Source of the DNA: Escherichia phage KEP4
Direction: 5' to 3' (one strand)
Sequence record: PP047754
Length of the DNA stretch: 64,000 nucleotides
A program made the position numbers and the translations under genes. A model generated the notes under the pieces. It saw nothing but the letters and a program-made list of their open reading frames with translations. It did not search any database and had not been told where the DNA came from. Positions within the stretch are counted from its first letter, which is position 1; each line of letters starts with the position of its first letter. Below are positions 1,092 to 55,343 of this stretch, piece by piece.

Positions 1092-2873
1092 ATGGCCACG
1101 CAAACAGTTCCTTCACTCGACGTCAGAGCATTTGAATACATTATTAAACAGCGAATGAAAGCTGATCCCACCTTTAAAGATTATGACTTTGAAGGTTCTG
1201 GTCTTAGTGCGATTATTCGTTTGTTGGCATCTGACGCGAACGCCATAGCCTTTATGCAAAACATGCTTAATGGTGAAGGCCATTTGAAGACAGCAAATCA
1301 ACGTTCAAACGTCGGTTTATCTGCTGCATTTCTTTCCTACACGCCTGACAACTATCGGGCAGCATACATGTATGTCAACATCAAAGTTACGCCTTATGAC
1401 GCCAGCACAGCCCCCAATGAGATCATCATGGATCGGCGCGTAATGTTCGTTGGGGCAAAAGACGGCAGTTCCTACAACTTTACTGTTGAGAAACCAGTGT
1501 CGGCAACGTTGACTGCAGACGGTTATTACATGTTCAACAATGTAAAGTTGATACAGGGGAATTGGTTGTACAAGACATATGATGTTGAAGGAAGCGCGAT
1601 TTCAACATATACGATTCCTTCTGGGAATGTCGATATCAATCATATGGTCGTGCAAGTACAAGAATCAGAGTCTTCCGACGTTTCGACGACATATCAACGT
1701 TACAACAGTCCATTTGATCTGAGCCAATATGCCTACCTGTATTTCGTAGAATTGGGTATTGATGGTCTGTATGTGTTTGAATTCGGAGATGGTTATCTTT
1801 CGCGTCGAGTAGAAGATGGGAACGTCATATTCCTTCAATACTTAGAAACTTCTGGTGCTGATGGGAATGATATCACAAGCCTGTCATCAGCGTCATCCAT
1901 AGGCGGGTTTAACCAGGTCGATGTAGAATTGGTTTCCGAACGTAGCGCAGGTGGAGACGATCCGGAATCTATTGAGGACACTAAACGGTTGGCTCCTTTA
2001 GCTTATCAGGCTGATGGTGCTGCGGTTACAGAAACAGATTATGGTGTATTGACTGAAAGGTTATTCTCCAACGTCTCCCGAGCTAAATCATATGGTGGTG
2101 ACACGCTGTCTCCTCCTGATTCTGGCTATGTTTACATCGCTGTTATACCTTCTGTTGGTGAGACACTTTCGGACGCTGAGAAGGCCGATATCGTTGCTGC
2201 TCTGGACAAGTATAATGTGGGATCTATTACCCCCAAAGTGGTAGACTCCGAGATCACATATATCCAAGTCTCAACGACTATATTTTGGGATCCGACTTCT
2301 ACAGTCTACGTTGAAGAACAGATGAAAGTTGTTGTTGGAAACAGTATCGTTAAATGGGGTGAAAATAATCTCGGCGGATTTGACCAATTGTTTGACAAAG
2401 AAATATTGCAGGAAGCAATTACAAAAATGGAGCGTTCTATTAACTCGAATATTACTTCGGTTGGTTATAAACGCCATTTCAAACCCGATTATGGAGTCTT
2501 AGACAGTTTTACATTCAGTTATGGAAGAAGTATCAAACCTGGTTCTGTGAAAATAACGGGGTTCAAACCGCTTCCTGCCGAGGTGGATTTCACTTACTAC
2601 ATGCGCGACAATAATGGCGATTTGAACATGTATAAAGTGAATAACAATGACACGACAAAAGAGTTTTTAGTTCAAAAAACAGGGGTTGTAGATTATGCAA
2701 ATGGGGTTGTAGACCTTCAACAGATCACAGTCTCCAACTATAACCCTGAAGGGGTGACCATAGTCGTGTTACCGGATGGACTGAACCAGAACATACAGGC
2801 TACACAAAACCAAGTATTCAAGATTGGTGATGTGGTTGTTACGCCAGAGGTGCGCTATGTCCAAAGATCTTAA
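1092..2873 (+). CDS. baseplate wedge protein (T4 gp6-like), tentative
   Basis: 593-aa ORF; track start 1041 is TTG, ATG at 1092 has GGAG 6 nt upstream; position at head of the baseplate/tailspike block; product by synteny and size only. Confidence 0.5.
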   Translation: MATQTVPSLDVRAFEYIIKQRMKADPTFKDYDFEGSGLSAIIRLLASDANAIAFMQNMLNGEGHLKTANQRSNVGLSAAFLSYTPDNYRAAYMYVNIKVTPYDASTAPNEIIMDRRVMFVGAKDGSSYNFTVEKPVSATLTADGYYMFNNVKLIQGNWLYKTYDVEGSAISTYTIPSGNVDINHMVVQVQESESSDVSTTYQRYNSPFDLSQYAYLYFVELGIDGLYVFEFGDGYLSRRVEDGNVIFLQYLETSGADGNDITSLSSASSIGGFNQVDVELVSERSAGGDDPESIEDTKRLAPLAYQADGAAVTETDYGVLTERLFSNVSRAKSYGGDTLSPPDSGYVYIAVIPSVGETLSDAEKADIVAALDKYNVGSITPKVVDSEITYIQVSTTIFWDPTSTVYVEEQMKVVVGNSIVKWGENNLGGFDQLFDKEILQEAITKMERSINSNITSVGYKRHFKPDYGVLDSFTFSYGRSIKPGSVKITGFKPLPAEVDFTYYMRDNNGDLNMYKVNNNDTTKEFLVQKTGVVDYANGVVDLQQITVSNYNPEGVTIVVLPDGLNQNIQATQNQVFKIGDVVVTPEVRYVQRS

Positions 2874-3711
2874 TAATGGACACAACGGGGTTAAGTATGA
2901 AACTCCGTTGTTCTACCAGAATGATTTCCCTCTGTTCATAGAATTTATGGACACGTTTTTCAATTGGCTGTATAGACAGCAGGGGTTCACTCAAGAAGAG
3001 ATCTTGGCATATCTGGCAGATACGTCTAGTTGGATGAATCCCGAGAGTGAAGATTCTCCGGTTAAACAGCTGATTGATTTAAAGGCTGACAAGACTCCAG
3101 GCTCAGAGGCCAAGGATTATTTGTCTGATAAATTCTTGGTTCGTACCTTTGAGAACATGATGGCTCTGGATGCCGAAGAACTTTTAGATGCCGACGGAAG
3201 GCCGCTATTGTCAATAGAAGATAAGAACAAACAGATAGATGACTGGTATAATGATTTTGGTTTCCAACGAACTGTTGATAAATCATTTCAGGAATTTGGT
3301 CATTTTATCCCAGTTGGTTCGGATTCTTTGCTGACGGCAACGGGAGACAGGTTCTCAGTTTACATTGAAGGAACGAAACGGAGAACGCTAGATCATCCAC
3401 GTTGGTTGAAACTGTTAAAACATATCTATAAAATCCGCGGAACCAAGAAAGCAATTGAATTGTTCTTTTGGATATATTTTGGTTGTCCAGTCAGTGTCTA
3501 TTTCCCAAAAGAGGAAATAGGCGGTCTGGATGGCAATTTTGAATGTGACGGTATGACAGGGATGCGTGATGACTATTATTATGATGAGTACACTTACGTG
3601 ATAAGAGTCCCAGGCGACGTATCTGATTTCGAAGGCGTATTTGAACGTGTCTTCCGTCAGCATTTCCATCCTGCTGGGTTTACTGTATTCCTAGAAAGTT
3701 CAAGGAGCTAA
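2857..3711 (+). CDS. putative baseplate/tail structural protein (284 aa)
   Basis: ATG at 2857 with GAGG 7 nt upstream, overlaps upstream gene by 17 nt; no motif recognised. Confidence 0.5.
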   Translation: MSKDLNNGHNGVKYETPLFYQNDFPLFIEFMDTFFNWLYRQQGFTQEEILAYLADTSSWMNPESEDSPVKQLIDLKADKTPGSEAKDYLSDKFLVRTFENMMALDAEELLDADGRPLLSIEDKNKQIDDWYNDFGFQRTVDKSFQEFGHFIPVGSDSLLTATGDRFSVYIEGTKRRTLDHPRWLKLLKHIYKIRGTKKAIELFFWIYFGCPVSVYFPKEEIGGLDGNFECDGMTGMRDDYYYDEYTYVIRVPGDVSDFEGVFERVFRQHFHPAGFTVFLESSRS

Positions 3712-3713
3712 AA

Positions 3714-4904
3714 ATGGCCGATTTCCTGAGTCAATATACAGGTCAGCAGATAGATCAGATATTGGGTTCTGTTGACGACAAAGTAAGTAAAAATGACGTT
3801 ATTAACGATTTTGAAGTTAACGACCCATTGTTTCCACCATCTGCTCGCCTGACATATGAGTTGAAAAGATCTGTTGACACAATCAATGATACTCTGGCCA
3901 ACAAAGTTATTCGTACAGATAGTGGTGAACAAACAATCAATGGCAAAAAGACTTTCAATGCGTTGTTGGTGACCAATGGGGGCATACAAGTCCCCGCCGG
4001 AAAATCCGTTTCAATCACAGATGAACCAACGAACTCGACAGATGGTGTTAACCTGAGCATGTTGAGAAAGCATGGCGTCAGTGAAGACACTACCCCGCCT
4101 GGTTCTGGTTTGGCTGGGGAGTTGTTGACATCCGGATATTACAAATTCAATTTGGATTTCACCAGATTGTCTGCGTATACCGGACCAACGTTGCCGACTT
4201 CAGTTCCTGTACAGACAGATTCTGGAGCGCGTTATTGGACAATGACTGCATTTTTTGATGCGTTGTTTGCAGACAACCGATTTAATGGATATGTGACAAC
4301 GACAGCGTATGACGCAGATATGCTGAGTCTAGAGTCTCAAATTAATAACATCAACACGTCGTTGAACGGGAAAGTCAACACCTCGACTTACAACACTAAG
4401 ATGGCGTCGTTGGATTTGAGTATCTCCAATATCAACACGTCTCTGGGTAATAAAGTCGAGGTCAGCACATATAATACGAAGATGACTTCCTTGGACGGCA
4501 GTATCAGTTCTCTCACGACTGGTAAGGTCGATGTATCAACGTATAATGCCAAAATGACCACAATTGATAACAGTTTAGGGAACGCAGTTTATCGCACAAA
4601 AACAAACTTGTCGTCATACACGGTTTCGGCTTCGGGAACGACGGCTCTTCCAGATTTTGATTTGGTGAACCTTTGTCAAATACTGGTAACTGCGCAATGG
4701 GGGACAGGTAACGTTGTTGACACATATCGAGTAACCATAACTCGTGACGGAACGATCAAATCAGAGTTGTTGGTTCAGAAAAGTACGAGTGGTACAGTGA
4801 CGTTCACAGGGTCTGTGGTGGGCGGTAAATTGAGAATTTCCGTTGTTAATGCGAATACAACAACTGCTTGTTCTGTCGATTATTCTATTGCAGCTTCTTT
4901 CTAA
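3714..4904 (+). CDS. tail fibre-like protein with tandem 27-aa repeats
   Basis: 396 aa; N-terminal KVIRTDSGEQTINGKKTFN fibre-type motif; central repeats NINTSLNGKV-TSTYNTKM-SLD. Confidence 0.6.
   Translation: MADFLSQYTGQQIDQILGSVDDKVSKNDVINDFEVNDPLFPPSARLTYELKRSVDTINDTLANKVIRTDSGEQTINGKKTFNALLVTNGGIQVPAGKSVSITDEPTNSTDGVNLSMLRKHGVSEDTTPPGSGLAGELLTSGYYKFNLDFTRLSAYTGPTLPTSVPVQTDSGARYWTMTAFFDALFADNRFNGYVTTTAYDADMLSLESQINNINTSLNGKVNTSTYNTKMASLDLSISNINTSLGNKVEVSTYNTKMTSLDGSISSLTTGKVDVSTYNAKMTTIDNSLGNAVYRTKTNLSSYTVSASGTTALPDFDLVNLCQILVTAQWGTGNVVDTYRVTITRDGTIKSELLVQKSTSGTVTFTGSVVGGKLRISVVNANTTTACSVDYSIAASF
4347..4580 (+). repeat. two full and one partial 81-bp in-frame tandem repeats inside the fibre gene
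   Basis: units start at 4347 and 4428 (aacatcaacacgtc / aatatcaacacgtc); third unit degenerate. Confidence 0.6.
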
Positions 4905-47160: not shown

Positions 47161-47188
47161 ACAGAGGCTATAATGGCCTCTGTTTTTG
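47161..47188 (+). terminator. rho-independent terminator (acagaggc-tataat-ggcctctgt + TTTTTG)
   Basis: 8-9-bp stem, U-tract. Confidence 0.8.
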
Positions 47189-47206
47189 TATTCTAGAGAG
47201 GATACC

Positions 47207-48433
47207 ATGAAAGATAAACCGTGTGACATTCCTTATTGCGGTGTTCGGGAAGCTAAAATTAAATCTGCACATCCCATGTTAAGCCCATTCCATAAACAAC
47301 TCGCATACGAATGGATGAGCGAGCGCTATAAGATCCACGTGAGAAAGGACGTCCAGCGTCTTCCTGCTCCTTGGACGGATAATCCCATACTACGGCAGGT
47401 CAAGTTCTGTAACGTCCGGAGAGAGCACGACAGGCAGTCTCTTAACCTGATCAATAATATCGTCAAGAACGACGCTCTGAGCATGGCCGACAAAATGTTC
47501 AACTGTGTTCTGTTCCGCATGTTCAATCTCTGGGATCCGATCAAGGTGGCGCTCGAGGGCGCTATGACGATTTCAGACTTTGCTAAAATCAACCTGGACG
47601 AGACCCGCGCCCGTCTTCAGAAGTTTGAATCTGAAGGTGGTAAGATCTTCACCAACGCATTCAACACAGGCGGTCTAAAACAATGTCTGGCGTTCCCCGA
47701 ACTTGTTGTCAACCACAAGGAGCAGCGCTTCGGTGGCATGATGGTTAAGGTACACCGTGTTGGCCAGGGTGTCGTGGATGAATTGGATTACAAGGTCGCC
47801 AAGAAGCTGGTTGAAGAGAATCCTGGGGAGTACACCATTGAGGGTTGGGAGCCGTACATGCCAATGCGTGTCATCCGCTCTTTGAAGGCATTCGTCAACA
47901 AGTACCCCGATTACTTCAATGATCTTTTACGTCTTGACTCTCCGCTGAAAGTTTACCAGCGCATGTATGATGACATTGAAGGGCTTGGGCCATTCCTGGC
48001 ATATCAGATCTGGGTGGACTTCACATACATCCCTGAGTATCCATTCAGTGAGAATCATTTCACTATTGCTGGTCCAGGTTGCCGTGCGGGTATTGACCTG
48101 ATGTTCCTGGATAAGGACGGCATGACTCATGAAGAATGCATATTCTGGGTTCGTGATCATCAGTATCAATTGTTTGCTCAGTATGGTTATGTCCAAGAGC
48201 AGTTCTGGTCAGCCGAAGCGCCGGAAGATCAGTGCATGAACGTCATGCAGCTGGAGAACATGTTCTGTGAATTGAGCAAGTACACCCGCTGTGTTGAGGC
48301 TATCGAGAGAGGGGAAAAGCCACGCGGCAAGGTCGGTTATGATGGAGGCGGGAGATACAAAAATCGATGCGATGAAATTGTCCTCAATCGCGGATCGGTC
48401 AATTTATTAGATCGTTTGAAGAAACCTGAATAA
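47207..48433 (+). CDS. hypothetical protein (408 aa); speculative DNA/nucleotide-modification enzyme
   Basis: GAGAGG SD; Cys/His-rich N-terminus (CDIPYCG, KFCNVRREHD); no Walker motif; function not assignable by eye. Confidence 0.55.
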   Translation: MKDKPCDIPYCGVREAKIKSAHPMLSPFHKQLAYEWMSERYKIHVRKDVQRLPAPWTDNPILRQVKFCNVRREHDRQSLNLINNIVKNDALSMADKMFNCVLFRMFNLWDPIKVALEGAMTISDFAKINLDETRARLQKFESEGGKIFTNAFNTGGLKQCLAFPELVVNHKEQRFGGMMVKVHRVGQGVVDELDYKVAKKLVEENPGEYTIEGWEPYMPMRVIRSLKAFVNKYPDYFNDLLRLDSPLKVYQRMYDDIEGLGPFLAYQIWVDFTYIPEYPFSENHFTIAGPGCRAGIDLMFLDKDGMTHEECIFWVRDHQYQLFAQYGYVQEQFWSAEAPEDQCMNVMQLENMFCELSKYTRCVEAIERGEKPRGKVGYDGGGRYKNRCDEIVLNRGSVNLLDRLKKPE

Positions 48434-52383: not shown

Positions 52384-52650
52384 TTCTTCAAAAGTCTTTC
52401 AAAATCAATAACGTCCGGCAAAATGCTGGGCGTTTCAATTAATAAGCCAAGGTATAATGGCCCAACTGAAAACGCGGGGGAATTTCTTTGTCCAAGCCAT
52501 TCATTCGTTCCGGAGTTGATTCTCTAGACTCCCAATTTAAGCCGAGCGAAGTTTTAATCCAACAAATTGAAACCAATCGTGAATTCATAGAACACATGTT
52601 GGCAAAGCCGGAAGGTGAAGCCGCTCAAACCACCAAAGAAGGTAATAACG

Positions 52651-54867
52651 ATGATTGAATCATTAACATTTAAAAATGCGGTAGCAACCGTCGCGCCGTC
52701 TAACCATGTAATCGTTGTGGATATCTCCGGTTCCATGTACCGTTCACTTCCTGAAGTTCGCAAGCATCTGAAGGAAAATCTCCCGTCTCTGGTTAAACCA
52801 GAAGATACCGTCAGCATTCTTTACTTTTCATCCCGTGGTGATTTCGGTACGGTATTCGCTGGCCGTCAGATCAATAGCGCGACCGATCTCAGTGAAATCA
52901 ATAAACTGATTGACCGCTTCCTGCAACCGTCCGGTTGTACGGGATTTGTAGAACCTCTGAAGTTGGCTGCTGAAACCGCGTTGAGCCTGAACAAACCTGG
53001 TTATGTCAATAACCTGGCGTTCATGACCGACGGCTATGACAACTGCTGGCGCTCTAATGAAATTCTGGCAGCAGCTGAAGTACTGCCCAAGGCGTTCGAT
53101 AATATTACATTCATCGAATATGGCTGGTATTGTAACCGCGAACTTCTGGCTCTGATGTCCGAGCGTTCTGGCGCGACTCACGTGTTTGCCGAAGGTCAGA
53201 CTGAATATCAGACCGAACTGGAAAACGTACTGAAATCATCTACGCCGAAAGTGGTTGTTGATGTTCCCCTGGTTTACACTCATGCCATCTACGTTGAAAA
53301 CGGCGTGGCAACTGTGCTAGCCGTACAACCCGATGAAGAACACCCGATTGGCCACGTCAGCATCCCTGAAAGCGTTTCTCAGCTGTGGGTTGTAAACCCT
53401 AACATGATCGACCAGCTGGATAATCTGGCAGACACCCAGGCGGCATACGTGCTGGCATTCTATGGCGTGTACACCATGGACGCCGATCTGGTCTGGGCCG
53501 CGCTGAAGAAGACGGGTGACGTCCGCTTCATCAAACAATACAGCAACTGTTTCACCAAGCAGGACTATTCCAACATCAAAGTCGATCTGACCCAGGCTAT
53601 CGTGGATGAAACTCTACGCGGCGTAGATGGCATCGATTACAATATGGTTCCAGCTGAAGATGCAACGACCATTGTTGATGTCTTGACCTACCTGGCCGAA
53701 GCCGATGTCTCTGTTGTCACTAAGCATCCATTGTTCTCTTACAACAGCATCGGTCGCGGCACTGTGCAGAAAGTTGATGACACTGAAGACAAGCTGGCTG
53801 AACAAATCGCCGAAGCCAAAACCAAAGCAGAGCGTAAAGCGCTGGCTCTCAAACTGGCTGAGCACGAAGATTGGACACCGGAATTTACTCCGGTTGATGA
53901 CAAAGGGATTGTCCCAATTAGCAATCTGGTCTACAATTCAGAGCGCCCTAACATCAGCATTCAGACCGTTCAGCATGGGACGGTTGTTGTGCCGGAGTTC
54001 GTACAGAAGAAATATGAACTCCCTGAAGAACTGGGAACCTGGCGTTATCGTAATTACACCATCGTCAAAGATGGAATCATCAACCTGAAGACGATGCCGA
54101 TTACTGCCGAATCTCCGATTGTCCGAGCTAAGGTTGTCCAAGATTTGATCGCCATGGGCGTTAATGTATTTGGTGGACCGGAAATCTTCATCGTTAATTT
54201 AGAAAGCGTTCCGATGGTCAACCGCGCCATGACCAAGAACATCAGTGCTGCCGAATTCTTCGCTGACAACGTTCGTCGCGAAGCGCTGAAGGCAAAACAG
54301 AAAGTTCTGAAATTCTATCGTGATGAACTGGTTGGCAAAGGCAATGCAACTGGTCTGGCTTCTAAATATGGTAAAGAAGCCGCCGATTTCTTGTCGGCAA
54401 ATGGCATTCGCGACTACGGGTTCTCGCCGAAAACTACTTCTGTGGAATCAACCGATGTCTACATGAGCCGTGAGCTGAATGTGAAAATCAAAGGTGCTTC
54501 GTCGCTGCCGAGCATTGCGTCAGTTATCAAAAAGCAAGCAGATGGTAAAAAACTGAATGTCGCTGATCAGTTGATTGCCAATGCTTTGGCCGAATACGAC
54601 GCTTTTGTTAAATCGCCAATGATCACCAGCGTACCTGAAGAGACTCAGAAAAAGCTGATTGAAAGCTGGATCGGGGACGCAGCAAAAGCGGCCATTAACG
54701 AAGTCCGCGCCCTGAACAAAACTCTGTCTAAAGTAGTTTACGGCATCGTCGCTGGTCATGGTTGGTTCACTGATTTGGATCTGGAAGAGTCTACGATGGA
54801 TGTAGAAGTTGATGGGGTGAAATACACCGTCACTGCCGAACTGGCCGAAAAAGAAATCAAAATCTAA
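52651..54867 (+). CDS. von Willebrand factor A (vWA) domain protein, 738 aa
   Basis: N-terminal MIDAS-type motif VVDISGSM with downstream TDGYDN; track start 52615 is GTG; 267-bp untranslated region upstream. Confidence 0.65.
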   Translation: MIESLTFKNAVATVAPSNHVIVVDISGSMYRSLPEVRKHLKENLPSLVKPEDTVSILYFSSRGDFGTVFAGRQINSATDLSEINKLIDRFLQPSGCTGFVEPLKLAAETALSLNKPGYVNNLAFMTDGYDNCWRSNEILAAAEVLPKAFDNITFIEYGWYCNRELLALMSERSGATHVFAEGQTEYQTELENVLKSSTPKVVVDVPLVYTHAIYVENGVATVLAVQPDEEHPIGHVSIPESVSQLWVVNPNMIDQLDNLADTQAAYVLAFYGVYTMDADLVWAALKKTGDVRFIKQYSNCFTKQDYSNIKVDLTQAIVDETLRGVDGIDYNMVPAEDATTIVDVLTYLAEADVSVVTKHPLFSYNSIGRGTVQKVDDTEDKLAEQIAEAKTKAERKALALKLAEHEDWTPEFTPVDDKGIVPISNLVYNSERPNISIQTVQHGTVVVPEFVQKKYELPEELGTWRYRNYTIVKDGIINLKTMPITAESPIVRAKVVQDLIAMGVNVFGGPEIFIVNLESVPMVNRAMTKNISAAEFFADNVRREALKAKQKVLKFYRDELVGKGNATGLASKYGKEAADFLSANGIRDYGFSPKTTSVESTDVYMSRELNVKIKGASSLPSIASVIKKQADGKKLNVADQLIANALAEYDAFVKSPMITSVPEETQKKLIESWIGDAAKAAINEVRALNKTLSKVVYGIVAGHGWFTDLDLEESTMDVEVDGVKYTVTAELAEKEIKI

Positions 54868-54875
54868 ATCTAATT

Positions 54876-54899
54876 GGCGGGGAAACCCGCCTTTACTTT
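54876..54899 (+). terminator. terminator-like hairpin (ggcggg-gaaa-cccgcc + TTTACTTT)
   Basis: 6-bp GC stem after the vWA gene. Confidence 0.55.
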
Positions 54900-54911
54900 C
54901 AGGAAATGAAT

Positions 54912-55223
54912 ATGAGCAACAAACCGACTTATGTTGATGTCATGCGCGATTTGGCCCAATACGCATGTGACAACCTGAACATGGAAACTTGGCGCGACGG
55001 CGATCATAAAGAAAAGTTCGATAATATCGACGACAACATCGATGCGTTGGCTCCTCTTCGGGCCAAGAGCGATCTCGGCGGTGATGATCTTGACATGATT
55101 GAACTCATCATGGAAGTTGAAGAACAATATGATGTTGAAATCAGTGATGACTGGGTAGGCAAACATGGTGATGATCCCACGCTCGGCGAATTAGCTGAAT
55201 TGGTAGTTGCCCTCAGCAAGTAA
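54912..55223 (+). CDS. acyl carrier protein-like protein with Asp at the phosphopantetheine-attachment position
   Basis: SDLGGDDLDMIELIMEVEEQYDVEI aligns with ACP helix II ([24 protein letters not shown]) but has D where the conserved Ser lies (codon 55086-55088 gat). Confidence 0.6.
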   Translation: MSNKPTYVDVMRDLAQYACDNLNMETWRDGDHKEKFDNIDDNIDALAPLRAKSDLGGDDLDMIELIMEVEEQYDVEISDDWVGKHGDDPTLGELAELVVALSK

Positions 55224-55231
55224 ACCAAAAG

Positions 55232-55259
55232 AATCCCCAATATTTATTGGGGATTTTTA
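55232..55259 (+). terminator. rho-independent terminator (aatcccca-atatttat-tggggatt + TTTAC)
   Basis: 8-bp stem plus U-tract. Confidence 0.7.
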
Positions 55260-55343
55260 CTTTTAGGGGTTTACTTCTTCTAAAGAATATCCTATTATTC
55301 AATAACTGGCTAACGTGGGGTTGGCTAGAAAAGGAGATACAAA

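Follow-up and report, generated by a model that had tools for sequence, protein, structure and literature searches.

A phage acyl carrier protein homologue that has lost the attachment serine and may act as a cofactor-free binding protein

In bacteria, the acyl carrier protein (ACP) AcpP is a hub that connects fatty-acid and lipid A synthesis, MukBEF, SpoT, IscS and AcpS. Here we describe an ACP-like protein of 103 residues from Escherichia phage KEP4, encoded at 54912..55223 (+) of a 64,000-nucleotide stretch of sequence record PP047754 (the window), in which the position of the phosphopantetheinylated serine is occupied by aspartate. Over 2 kb around its gene, the sequence is 100% identical to that of Escherichia phage Sa157lw and those of several Salmonella kutterviruses and 98% identical to that of phage Vi01, and by its sequence the window is a Kuttervirus (Ackermannviridae) genome. 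In bacterial type II AcpP (PF00550, TIGR00517) the attachment residue is Ser, whereas in the phage family it is Asp or Glu. Two insertions also set the phage protein apart from AcpP, one of ~23 residues behind helix I and one, W-x-G-x-x-G-DDPT, ahead of helix IV, and the annotation of the phage contains neither a cognate transferase nor fatty-acid enzymes.

As a functional precedent for an ACP without its cofactor, the best case is mACP of Plasmodium falciparum, which works without phosphopantetheine as a binding subunit that stabilises Isd11-Nfs1 (Falekun et al. 2021, PMC8547962). Like the phage protein, mACP is an ACP homologue that has lost the cofactor site and is retained under selection, but it belongs to a eukaryotic organelle and its partner is defined. 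The residue that replaces the serine in mACP is reportedly hydrophobic (Phe), whereas the phage family has a carboxylate. ACP-fold subunits are also found in SDAP/NDUFAB1 of complex I, trypanosome mt-SAF32, Tetrahymena ATPTT11 and Euglena NDUEG11. Most of these keep an acyl-phosphopantetheine that is inserted in LYR-type partners, and none is viral; a LYR-type partner is not evident in the phage.

Phage-encoded ACPs that bear the serine include the 'COG0236' protein of Vibrio phage ICP1, the ACP of Brevundimonas phage Bajun and ~71-residue ACPs in IMG/VR. They are likewise small stand-alone genes in large virulent phages, mostly without an assigned role, but they keep D-S-L and may be true carriers loaded by host AcpS, whereas the Ackermannviridae family never has Ser. 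A further point of comparison is T7 gp5.9 (PMC7617805), which is also small and strongly acidic and fills a basic site of a host machine, and with which the ACP-like protein shares MukBEF as a candidate target. Its fold is unrelated, however, and gp5.9 is a DNA mimic, whereas the ACP-like protein would mimic a host protein, AcpP. In the searchable literature we found no description of serine loss in Ackermannviridae or of phage ACP-like proteins with Ser replaced by Asp or Glu, and a 2024 review of the family is silent on the gene.

Homology of the KEP4 protein to ACP was assessed by profile and sequence searches. Pfam PP-binding (PF00550) is matched with E=4.5e-7 and 30.5 bits, where the gathering score is 20.8, with the match confined to residues 53-98, and PHROG 4154 ('acyl carrier protein') is matched over the whole length (E=4e-55). 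The closest PDB sequence match is Bacillus subtilis ACP (E=6.5e-7), and BLASTP aligns residues 54-84 with E. coli AcpP at 16/31 identities (E=3e-9). As judged by these sequence comparisons, homology to ACP is far above chance. A preliminary description, made from the letters of the window and their open reading frames (ORFs), had aligned the C-terminal half with the helix II motif of ACP, and the Pfam, PDB and AcpP alignments bear this out. A recent capture of host acpP was also considered and rejected, given the Bacillus ACP as best PDB match, the mere 31 residues that align to E. coli AcpP, and the large insertions.

The fold was predicted with AlphaFold from a 33-sequence alignment. The resulting model has a predicted local distance difference test score (pLDDT) of 86 and a predicted template modelling score (pTM) of 0.77, and contains helices at residues 7-21, 24-29, 33-46, 59-73, 79-84 and 91-102. 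Helix II of the model starts exactly at Asp59. Among the 50 PDB matches listed by Foldseek, all are carrier proteins and 49 are ACPs, with template modelling (TM) scores of up to 0.79 when normalised to the target. An independent BFVD model of the homologue from phage ViI superposes on ours with a TM score of 0.96. The four-helix ACP fold is thus present in the predicted structure. Structure prediction followed by Foldseek had been proposed in the preliminary description as a check, with a fold unlike ACP counting against its reading, and it is the ACP fold that was returned.

Outside the common core, the N-terminal half of the protein is poorly conserved, and the family-specific W-x-G-x-x-G-D-D-P-T insertion is seen in both the alignments and the model. 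Together with helix IV (91-102), it covers residues 81-103 (55152..55220, +). W81, G83, D87, D88, P89 and T90 are invariant in one family alignment (A1), and P89 is invariant in another (A2).

Attachment of phosphopantetheine takes place at Ser36 in AcpP. In the HMMER and BLASTP alignments, DLGGDDLD of the phage protein falls on DLGADSLD of ACP, which places Asp59, the first residue of predicted helix II, over the phosphopantetheinylated serine. The aspartate is encoded by GAT at 55086..55088 (+); the alignments and the codon read-out agree with the preliminary description, which had located a replacement of the invariant Ser by Asp at this codon.

A survey of homologues for Ser versus Asp had also been suggested, and acidic residues were found throughout the family members examined. 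The 25 clustered homologues, at 46-97% identity, all have L-G-G-D-[D/E]-L-D. A profile search of 1.84 billion representatives retrieved only ~11 full-length family clusters, and the nine informative distant clusters are all D/E as well (LGGDELD, FGCDELD, CVGDELD, LQGDDLD, LQCDDLD, MMGDDLS, FWADELD, LDGDDLD and FDADELD). D or E also occupies the Ser column in 28 more loci from GenBank and IMG/VR; the column is likewise acidic in the aglimvirine phage CRW-SP2, and the Miltonvirus phage KNP4 reads NFDELD. Down to 32% identity, every member examined has D or E at this column, and never S, T or A. The two preceding positions, 56 and 57, are variable (G/Q/V/M/W/D and G/C/A). Since these positions vary freely, it is the carboxylate itself that is under selection.

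Many GenBank records name the gene 'acyl carrier protein' or 'phosphopantetheine attachment site protein', and the others 'hypothetical protein'. Those names, and a Pfam PP-binding score above the gathering threshold, would fit a working acyl or peptidyl carrier that is loaded at another residue or by unusual chemistry. However, the serine is absent in all members, and no other conserved Ser, Thr or Cys is present at the attachment site across the family alignment. The only conserved hydroxyl in the family is that of T90, at the start of helix IV, and an alternative attachment residue was rejected for this reason. TIGR00517 scores 33.4 bits, less than half its cut-off of 70.45, and all 14 matching NCBIfam ACP or carrier models remain below their cut-offs. 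In the depositors' annotation of the 157-kb genome of the near-identical phage sal1, there is no phosphopantetheinyl transferase and no fatty-acid, polyketide or lipid A enzyme, and no synthase or acyltransferase is annotated that could serve such a carrier. A working carrier is close to refuted by these findings, and we regard it as extremely improbable.

The protein is thus predicted, on solid grounds, not to be a phosphopantetheine carrier at the canonical site. The statement in the preliminary description that it cannot be a functional acyl carrier is upheld by the family-wide loss of Ser, the NCBIfam scores below cut-off and the lack of annotated partner enzymes. For the same reasons, the label 'acyl carrier protein' is right on ancestry and fold and wrong on function. 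With the serine lost, acyl groups would not be carried, and any action would be purely through protein binding. In other words, this is a 'pseudo-ACP', a descendant of ACP with the four-helix fold and the docking helix in which the attachment serine is always D or E.

Loss of a key catalytic residue, alongside the poorly conserved N-terminal half, is also what a decaying relic of an ancestral phage ACP without present function could look like. Selection was therefore measured as the ratio of nonsynonymous to synonymous substitution rates (dN/dS), using the Nei-Gojobori method on codon alignments and comparisons with unsaturated dS. The ratio is 0.04-0.24 for the ACP-like gene, indicating purifying selection. 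An intact ORF is found in 270 phage records, the family has invariant residues that include the acidic residue 59, and one peptide of the Sajous1 homologue gp186 (63% identity) has been detected by mass spectrometry in phage preparations (PMC10892097). The selection analysis contradicts decay, and a functionless relic is accordingly a most improbable explanation.

Although constrained, the gene evolves faster than its surroundings, with a dN that is 2.5-4x that of the neighbouring gene, which encodes a VWA protein. In Salmonella phage maane (L028, IMG/VR 2974516482, 1740-4324), the VWA protein is 96% identical to that of the window (dS 0.69), whereas the ACP-like protein is only 61% identical, with saturated dS, and is nearer to the alleles of Dickeya limestoneviruses. 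The maane spacer up to the start of the ACP-like gene differs from the window at two positions in 50 nt, and the allele replacement is confined to the ACP-like coding sequence. This combination of fast evolution and allele swapping resembles a host-interaction gene.

If the protein acts by binding, its docking surface is expected to be preserved. In AcpP, helix II is the universal docking surface and makes electrostatic contacts with basic patches of its clients (PMC3340395; PMC8602292). The corresponding acidic helix of the phage protein, residues 58-73 (D-D-L-D-M-I-E-L-I-M-E-V-E-E-Q-Y; 55083..55130, +), aligns with AcpP 35-50. Among family members of 32-97% identity, D58, L60, I63, E64, M67 and E70, as well as P89 outside the helix, are invariant and D61 is nearly so. 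The helix residues D58, L60, I63, E64, M67, E70 and D61 correspond to D35, L37, V40, E41, M44, E47 and D38 of AcpP, and E71 is aligned with E48. The proposal in the preliminary description that the acidic docking helix has been kept is borne out by this one-to-one match between invariant residues and AcpP docking residues. Retention of the ACP fold together with the helix II docking residues is, in our view, a solid conclusion.

The acidity of the protein raises a different explanation, that it is a generic polyanionic decoy, or DNA mimic, directed against a host nuclease, a restriction enzyme or a DNA-binding defence protein. The window protein has a net charge of -18 over 103 residues (isoelectric point ~4), the charge is kept across the family (-12 to -18), the gene is small, fast-evolving and subject to allele swapping, and acidic phage mimics such as T7 gp5.9 act in this way (PMC7617805). 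However, E. coli AcpP is as acidic, with a net charge of -15 over 77 residues, so the acidity is inherited and is no evidence of mimicry. The structural matches are all carrier proteins, with no known DNA mimic among them, and a search of the PADLOC library of defence-system proteins gave no match for the ACP-like protein, a result that also bears on the AcpP-directed reading set out below. We consider a generic decoy improbable.

We tentatively favour, with somewhat less than even confidence, a cofactor-free binding protein with the ACP fold that mimics or competes with host AcpP where the cofactor is dispensable; its partner and client are ones that we infer. During infection, helix II would dock on a basic patch normally taken by host AcpP, and the protein would act there as a competitor of AcpP or as its substitute. 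An apo-ACP mimic that titrates or redirects host ACP-binding proteins, one reading offered in the preliminary description, would be a plausible form of this action. Sites at which binding is independent of the cofactor, such as the MukB joint, AcpS or AcpH, and PlsB, would be the likeliest targets. MukB binds apo-AcpP and holo-AcpP alike and is activated equally by either (PMC8602292), and MukBEF is a known phage target, since T7 gp5.9 inhibits both RecBCD and MukBEF (PMC7617805). The carboxylate that is always present at position 59 may mimic the holo-ACP phosphodiester, stabilise the N-terminus of the helix, or both.

Several points weigh against this reading. The binding partner is, again, only inferred. 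Host AcpP is very abundant, at ~50 uM (PMC8602292), so that plain competition would call for high expression or a much higher affinity. The phage protein is no close copy of AcpP, given that its best PDB match is Bacillus ACP, and given the 23-residue insertion after helix I and the 5-residue DDPT insertion. The lack of a PADLOC match counts here too, and the literature that we found holds the gene in annotation tables only, with no functional statement. Finally, a partner encoded by the phage could account equally well for the conservation of helix II, and the strict synteny with a VWA gene that has an intact metal ion-dependent adhesion site (MIDAS) points to such a partner.

This VWA gene (52651..54867, +) encodes a protein of 738 residues (PHROG 2426) with an N-terminal Pfam VWA domain (E=8e-7). 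Its MIDAS motif, as read from the sequence, is complete (D24-x-S26-x-S28, T97 and D127). About 550 residues of the protein are without detectable homology, a PDB sequence search gave no relative, and PADLOC gave no match for it; names in the records include 'magnesium chelatase' and 'minor tail protein'. Identity of the VWA protein is 69-84% between Ackermannviridae genera except Miltonvirus, and 55% to that of the Miltonvirus phage KNP4.

The ACP-like protein could thus be a dedicated partner of the VWA protein, in which Asp/Glu59 (or D58 or D61) completes the metal coordination of the MIDAS, as ligand carboxylates do in integrin I-domains, and the ACP fold contributes a subunit or regulator to a phage complex. 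In all complete cvivirine/aglimvirine-type loci of Ackermannviridae examined, whose ACP-like proteins go down to 32% identity, the VWA gene directly precedes the ACP-like gene, and the gap between the two measures 35-53 nt in 13 loci. There is no room for a separate promoter, which implies that the two genes are co-transcribed. The intact MIDAS and the replacement of Ser by a carboxylate in all cases also fit, as does the detection in Sajous1 of one peptide each of gp186 and of gp185, the VWA homologue (PMC10892097). However, Straboviridae (Lw1, PMBT1 and related phages, 48%), Bacillus phages and Rhizobium phages have full-length VWA homologues, at 23-48% identity, with no ACP-like gene within 3 kb of them; tblastn with the ACP-like protein found none in these groups. 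In KNP4, the two genes are ~880 nt apart with three small ORFs between them, and ACP-like proteins of the Asp/Glu type are found elsewhere without a VWA neighbour. A conserved hairpin separates the two genes, and synteny within one family is weak evidence. The two genes also differ 2.5-4 fold in rate, and in the allele replacement the ACP-like gene was exchanged without the VWA gene. On balance, we consider a dedicated VWA partner unlikely, though it is the main rival to the AcpP-directed reading.

The ACP-like gene is the last of a three-gene block that consists of a 56-residue ORF, the VWA gene and the ACP-like gene. The small ORF (52488..52658, +), which is in the ORF list and is annotated in phage sal1, overlaps the VWA start codon and is probably the first gene of the block. 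In diverged loci, a gene of 54-70 residues is found at the same place, mostly overlapping the VWA start, a likeness of position and size.

The preliminary description had placed terminators on both sides of the ACP-like gene. Both hairpins do exist and are kept in diverged relatives, but they do not make the gene an insulated unit. The upstream element (54876..54899, +) is a GC-rich hairpin, GGCGGG-GAAA-CCCGCC, followed by a weak T-tract (stem-loop 54876-54891, -15 kcal/mol, z=-3.3). The mere 20 nt between it and the ACP-like start codon are too few to hold a promoter, so that expression is expected through read-through from the VWA gene or from a promoter within the VWA coding sequence. The element is probably a partial terminator or an RNA-stabilising hairpin. 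A spacer hairpin is present in all 13 diverged loci inspected. In the window and in L003, L004, L009, L011, L013, L016, L021, L023, L024, L028, L031 and L032, its stem measures 6-7 bp, except in L009, where it has seven to ten pairs. Since the stems vary by lineage (GGCGGG/CCCGCC, GGGGGC/GCCCCC, CCGGGG/CCCCGG and others), it is the structure of the hairpin rather than its sequence that is conserved. The spacer hairpin (54868-54911 region) could be an attenuating terminator that sets the ratio of VWA to ACP-like expression. Downstream, the block is ended by a strong intrinsic terminator, AATCCCCAATA...TATTGGGGATT followed by a T-run (55232..55259, +; z=-3.0), which is kept in relatives and annotated as a terminator in phage Mooltan.

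Position in the genome suggests yet another role. The gene lies in a replication and recombination module with genes for the clamp, clamp loader, RegA, helicase and RNase H and for thymidine hypermodification, and its product might be an adaptor or scaffold in phage replication or nucleotide metabolism, much as the ACP fold serves in complex I, mitoribosome assembly intermediates and the ciliate ATP synthase. To see how far the serine-less state extends, 92 ACP-like ORFs from viral contigs and fetched loci were compared; 52 were found to have S in the Ser column, 33 to have D or E and the remaining 7 to have A. Outside Ackermannviridae, Asp/Glu types occur in phage-like contigs beside ThyX, RNR, dUTPase, ThyA/DHFR and ligase genes, surroundings that favour a scaffold. 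They are also present in 14 further IMG/VR contigs. A scaffold is likewise favoured by three of these cases, in which the module is an internal or C-terminal domain of larger proteins of 248-669 residues (L132 2942-4951, 669 residues; L117 3-854, 283 residues; L133 3527-4273, 248 residues). However, an all-against-all comparison of the non-Ackermannviridae Asp/Glu types gave no neighbour common to the lineages, save a dUTPase gene upstream in two contigs that are probably related by shared synteny. Module position is weak evidence, and one homologue is found in a different setting: an 80-residue ACP-like protein with Glu at the Ser column (LGADELD; L096 6001-6243, JGI contig Ga0683308_0000047) is encoded within a Mu-like prophage head-morphogenesis module, between the gpT major capsid and Gp36 genes. 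A scaffolding role is, in our estimation, distinctly unlikely.

The seven Ala-type proteins, with DL[GQK]GDALD, come from IMG/VR (L041, L054, L055, L058, L076, L077 and L082) and are mostly of 73-79 residues (90 in L082). They are a second kind of serine-less viral ACP-like protein. The recurrence of Ser-to-Asp/Glu, and Ser-to-Ala, replacement in unrelated large phages suggests a general, so far undescribed viral use of the fold. Taken further, Ackermannviridae and, independently, other large-phage lineages might deploy cofactor-free ACP mimics, with a carboxylate that imitates the phosphodiester of holo-ACP, at a host machine that uses AcpP as a subunit (the MukB joint, SpoT, AcpS or PlsB), and so disable or re-tune it. 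We hold this extended proposal to be possible but doubtful. If it were true, these proteins would form a new class of host-takeover protein, one that mimics a metabolic cofactor protein, and if the partner is an AcpP client, the client interface would have in the phage protein a genetically encoded probe or inhibitor of natural origin. In any case, many phage genome records call the gene 'acyl carrier protein' and count it as an auxiliary metabolic gene, a label that would be wrong as to function throughout Ackermannviridae. Phages used in therapy and biocontrol of Salmonella, E. coli O157, Klebsiella and Dickeya belong to this family.

The limits of the coding sequence (54912..55223, +; stop TAA at 55221-55223) follow from the ORF list, the Pfam, PHROG and PDB matches and the predicted fold. 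An alternative ATG lies two codons earlier, at 54906, and is taken as the start in some GenBank records; the start at 54912 is favoured because the family alignment begins at its Met. A Shine-Dalgarno-like AGGAAA (54901..54906, +) precedes it, with AGGA at 54901-54904, 7 nt from the ATG at 54912, and a ribosome-binding site is annotated likewise in phage Mooltan. Two antisense ORFs, 54870-55166 (-) of 98 residues and 55004-55240 (-) of 78 residues, are probably frame shadows and were rejected as genes without homology support.

A thymidine hypermodification gene of the ViI-like pathway is found on the strand of the ACP-like gene, 6.5 kb before it. This ORF, 47186-48433 (+), matches Pfam HMUDK_hel, the helical domain of 5-hydroxymethyldeoxyuridine (5-hmdU) DNA kinase (E=1.4e-83), and its counterpart in sal1 is annotated as alpha-glutamyl/putrescinyl thymine pyrophosphorylase clade 1. 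A role of the ACP-like protein in thymidine hypermodification was considered and rejected, since adjacency to this 5-hmdU kinase/pyrophosphorylase gene is all that speaks for it. The pathway is not known to include an ACP step.

Further observations concern the surroundings of the block and some of the more distant ACP-like proteins. Ahead of the three-gene block (region 52405-52460), a hairpin is followed by a perfect TATAAT (52453-52458). After the downstream terminator, a sigma-70-like promoter site, TTTACT-17-TATTAT at 55270-55298, starts the next group of small genes, and the motif TTTACTTT is found downstream of both hairpins that flank the ACP-like gene. In the multidomain proteins of L132, L117 and L133, the remainder is without obvious annotation. 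A bacterial ACP-like protein of 106 residues (L094 6001-6321, GCA_016744675.1) has Glu at the Ser column and a signal-peptide-like N-terminus and is encoded among small unannotated genes; the related proteins P0181 and P0185 have hydrophobic N-termini as well. Lastly, P0043 (L104/L105 6001-6276, ENA metagenome contigs) is a Ser-bearing ACP with the DDPT motif of the family before helix IV, encoded in a mobile-element-like island with ParB_N proteins, methyltransferases and a ThiF/E2-like pair. With both Ser and DDPT, it may resemble the ancestral state.

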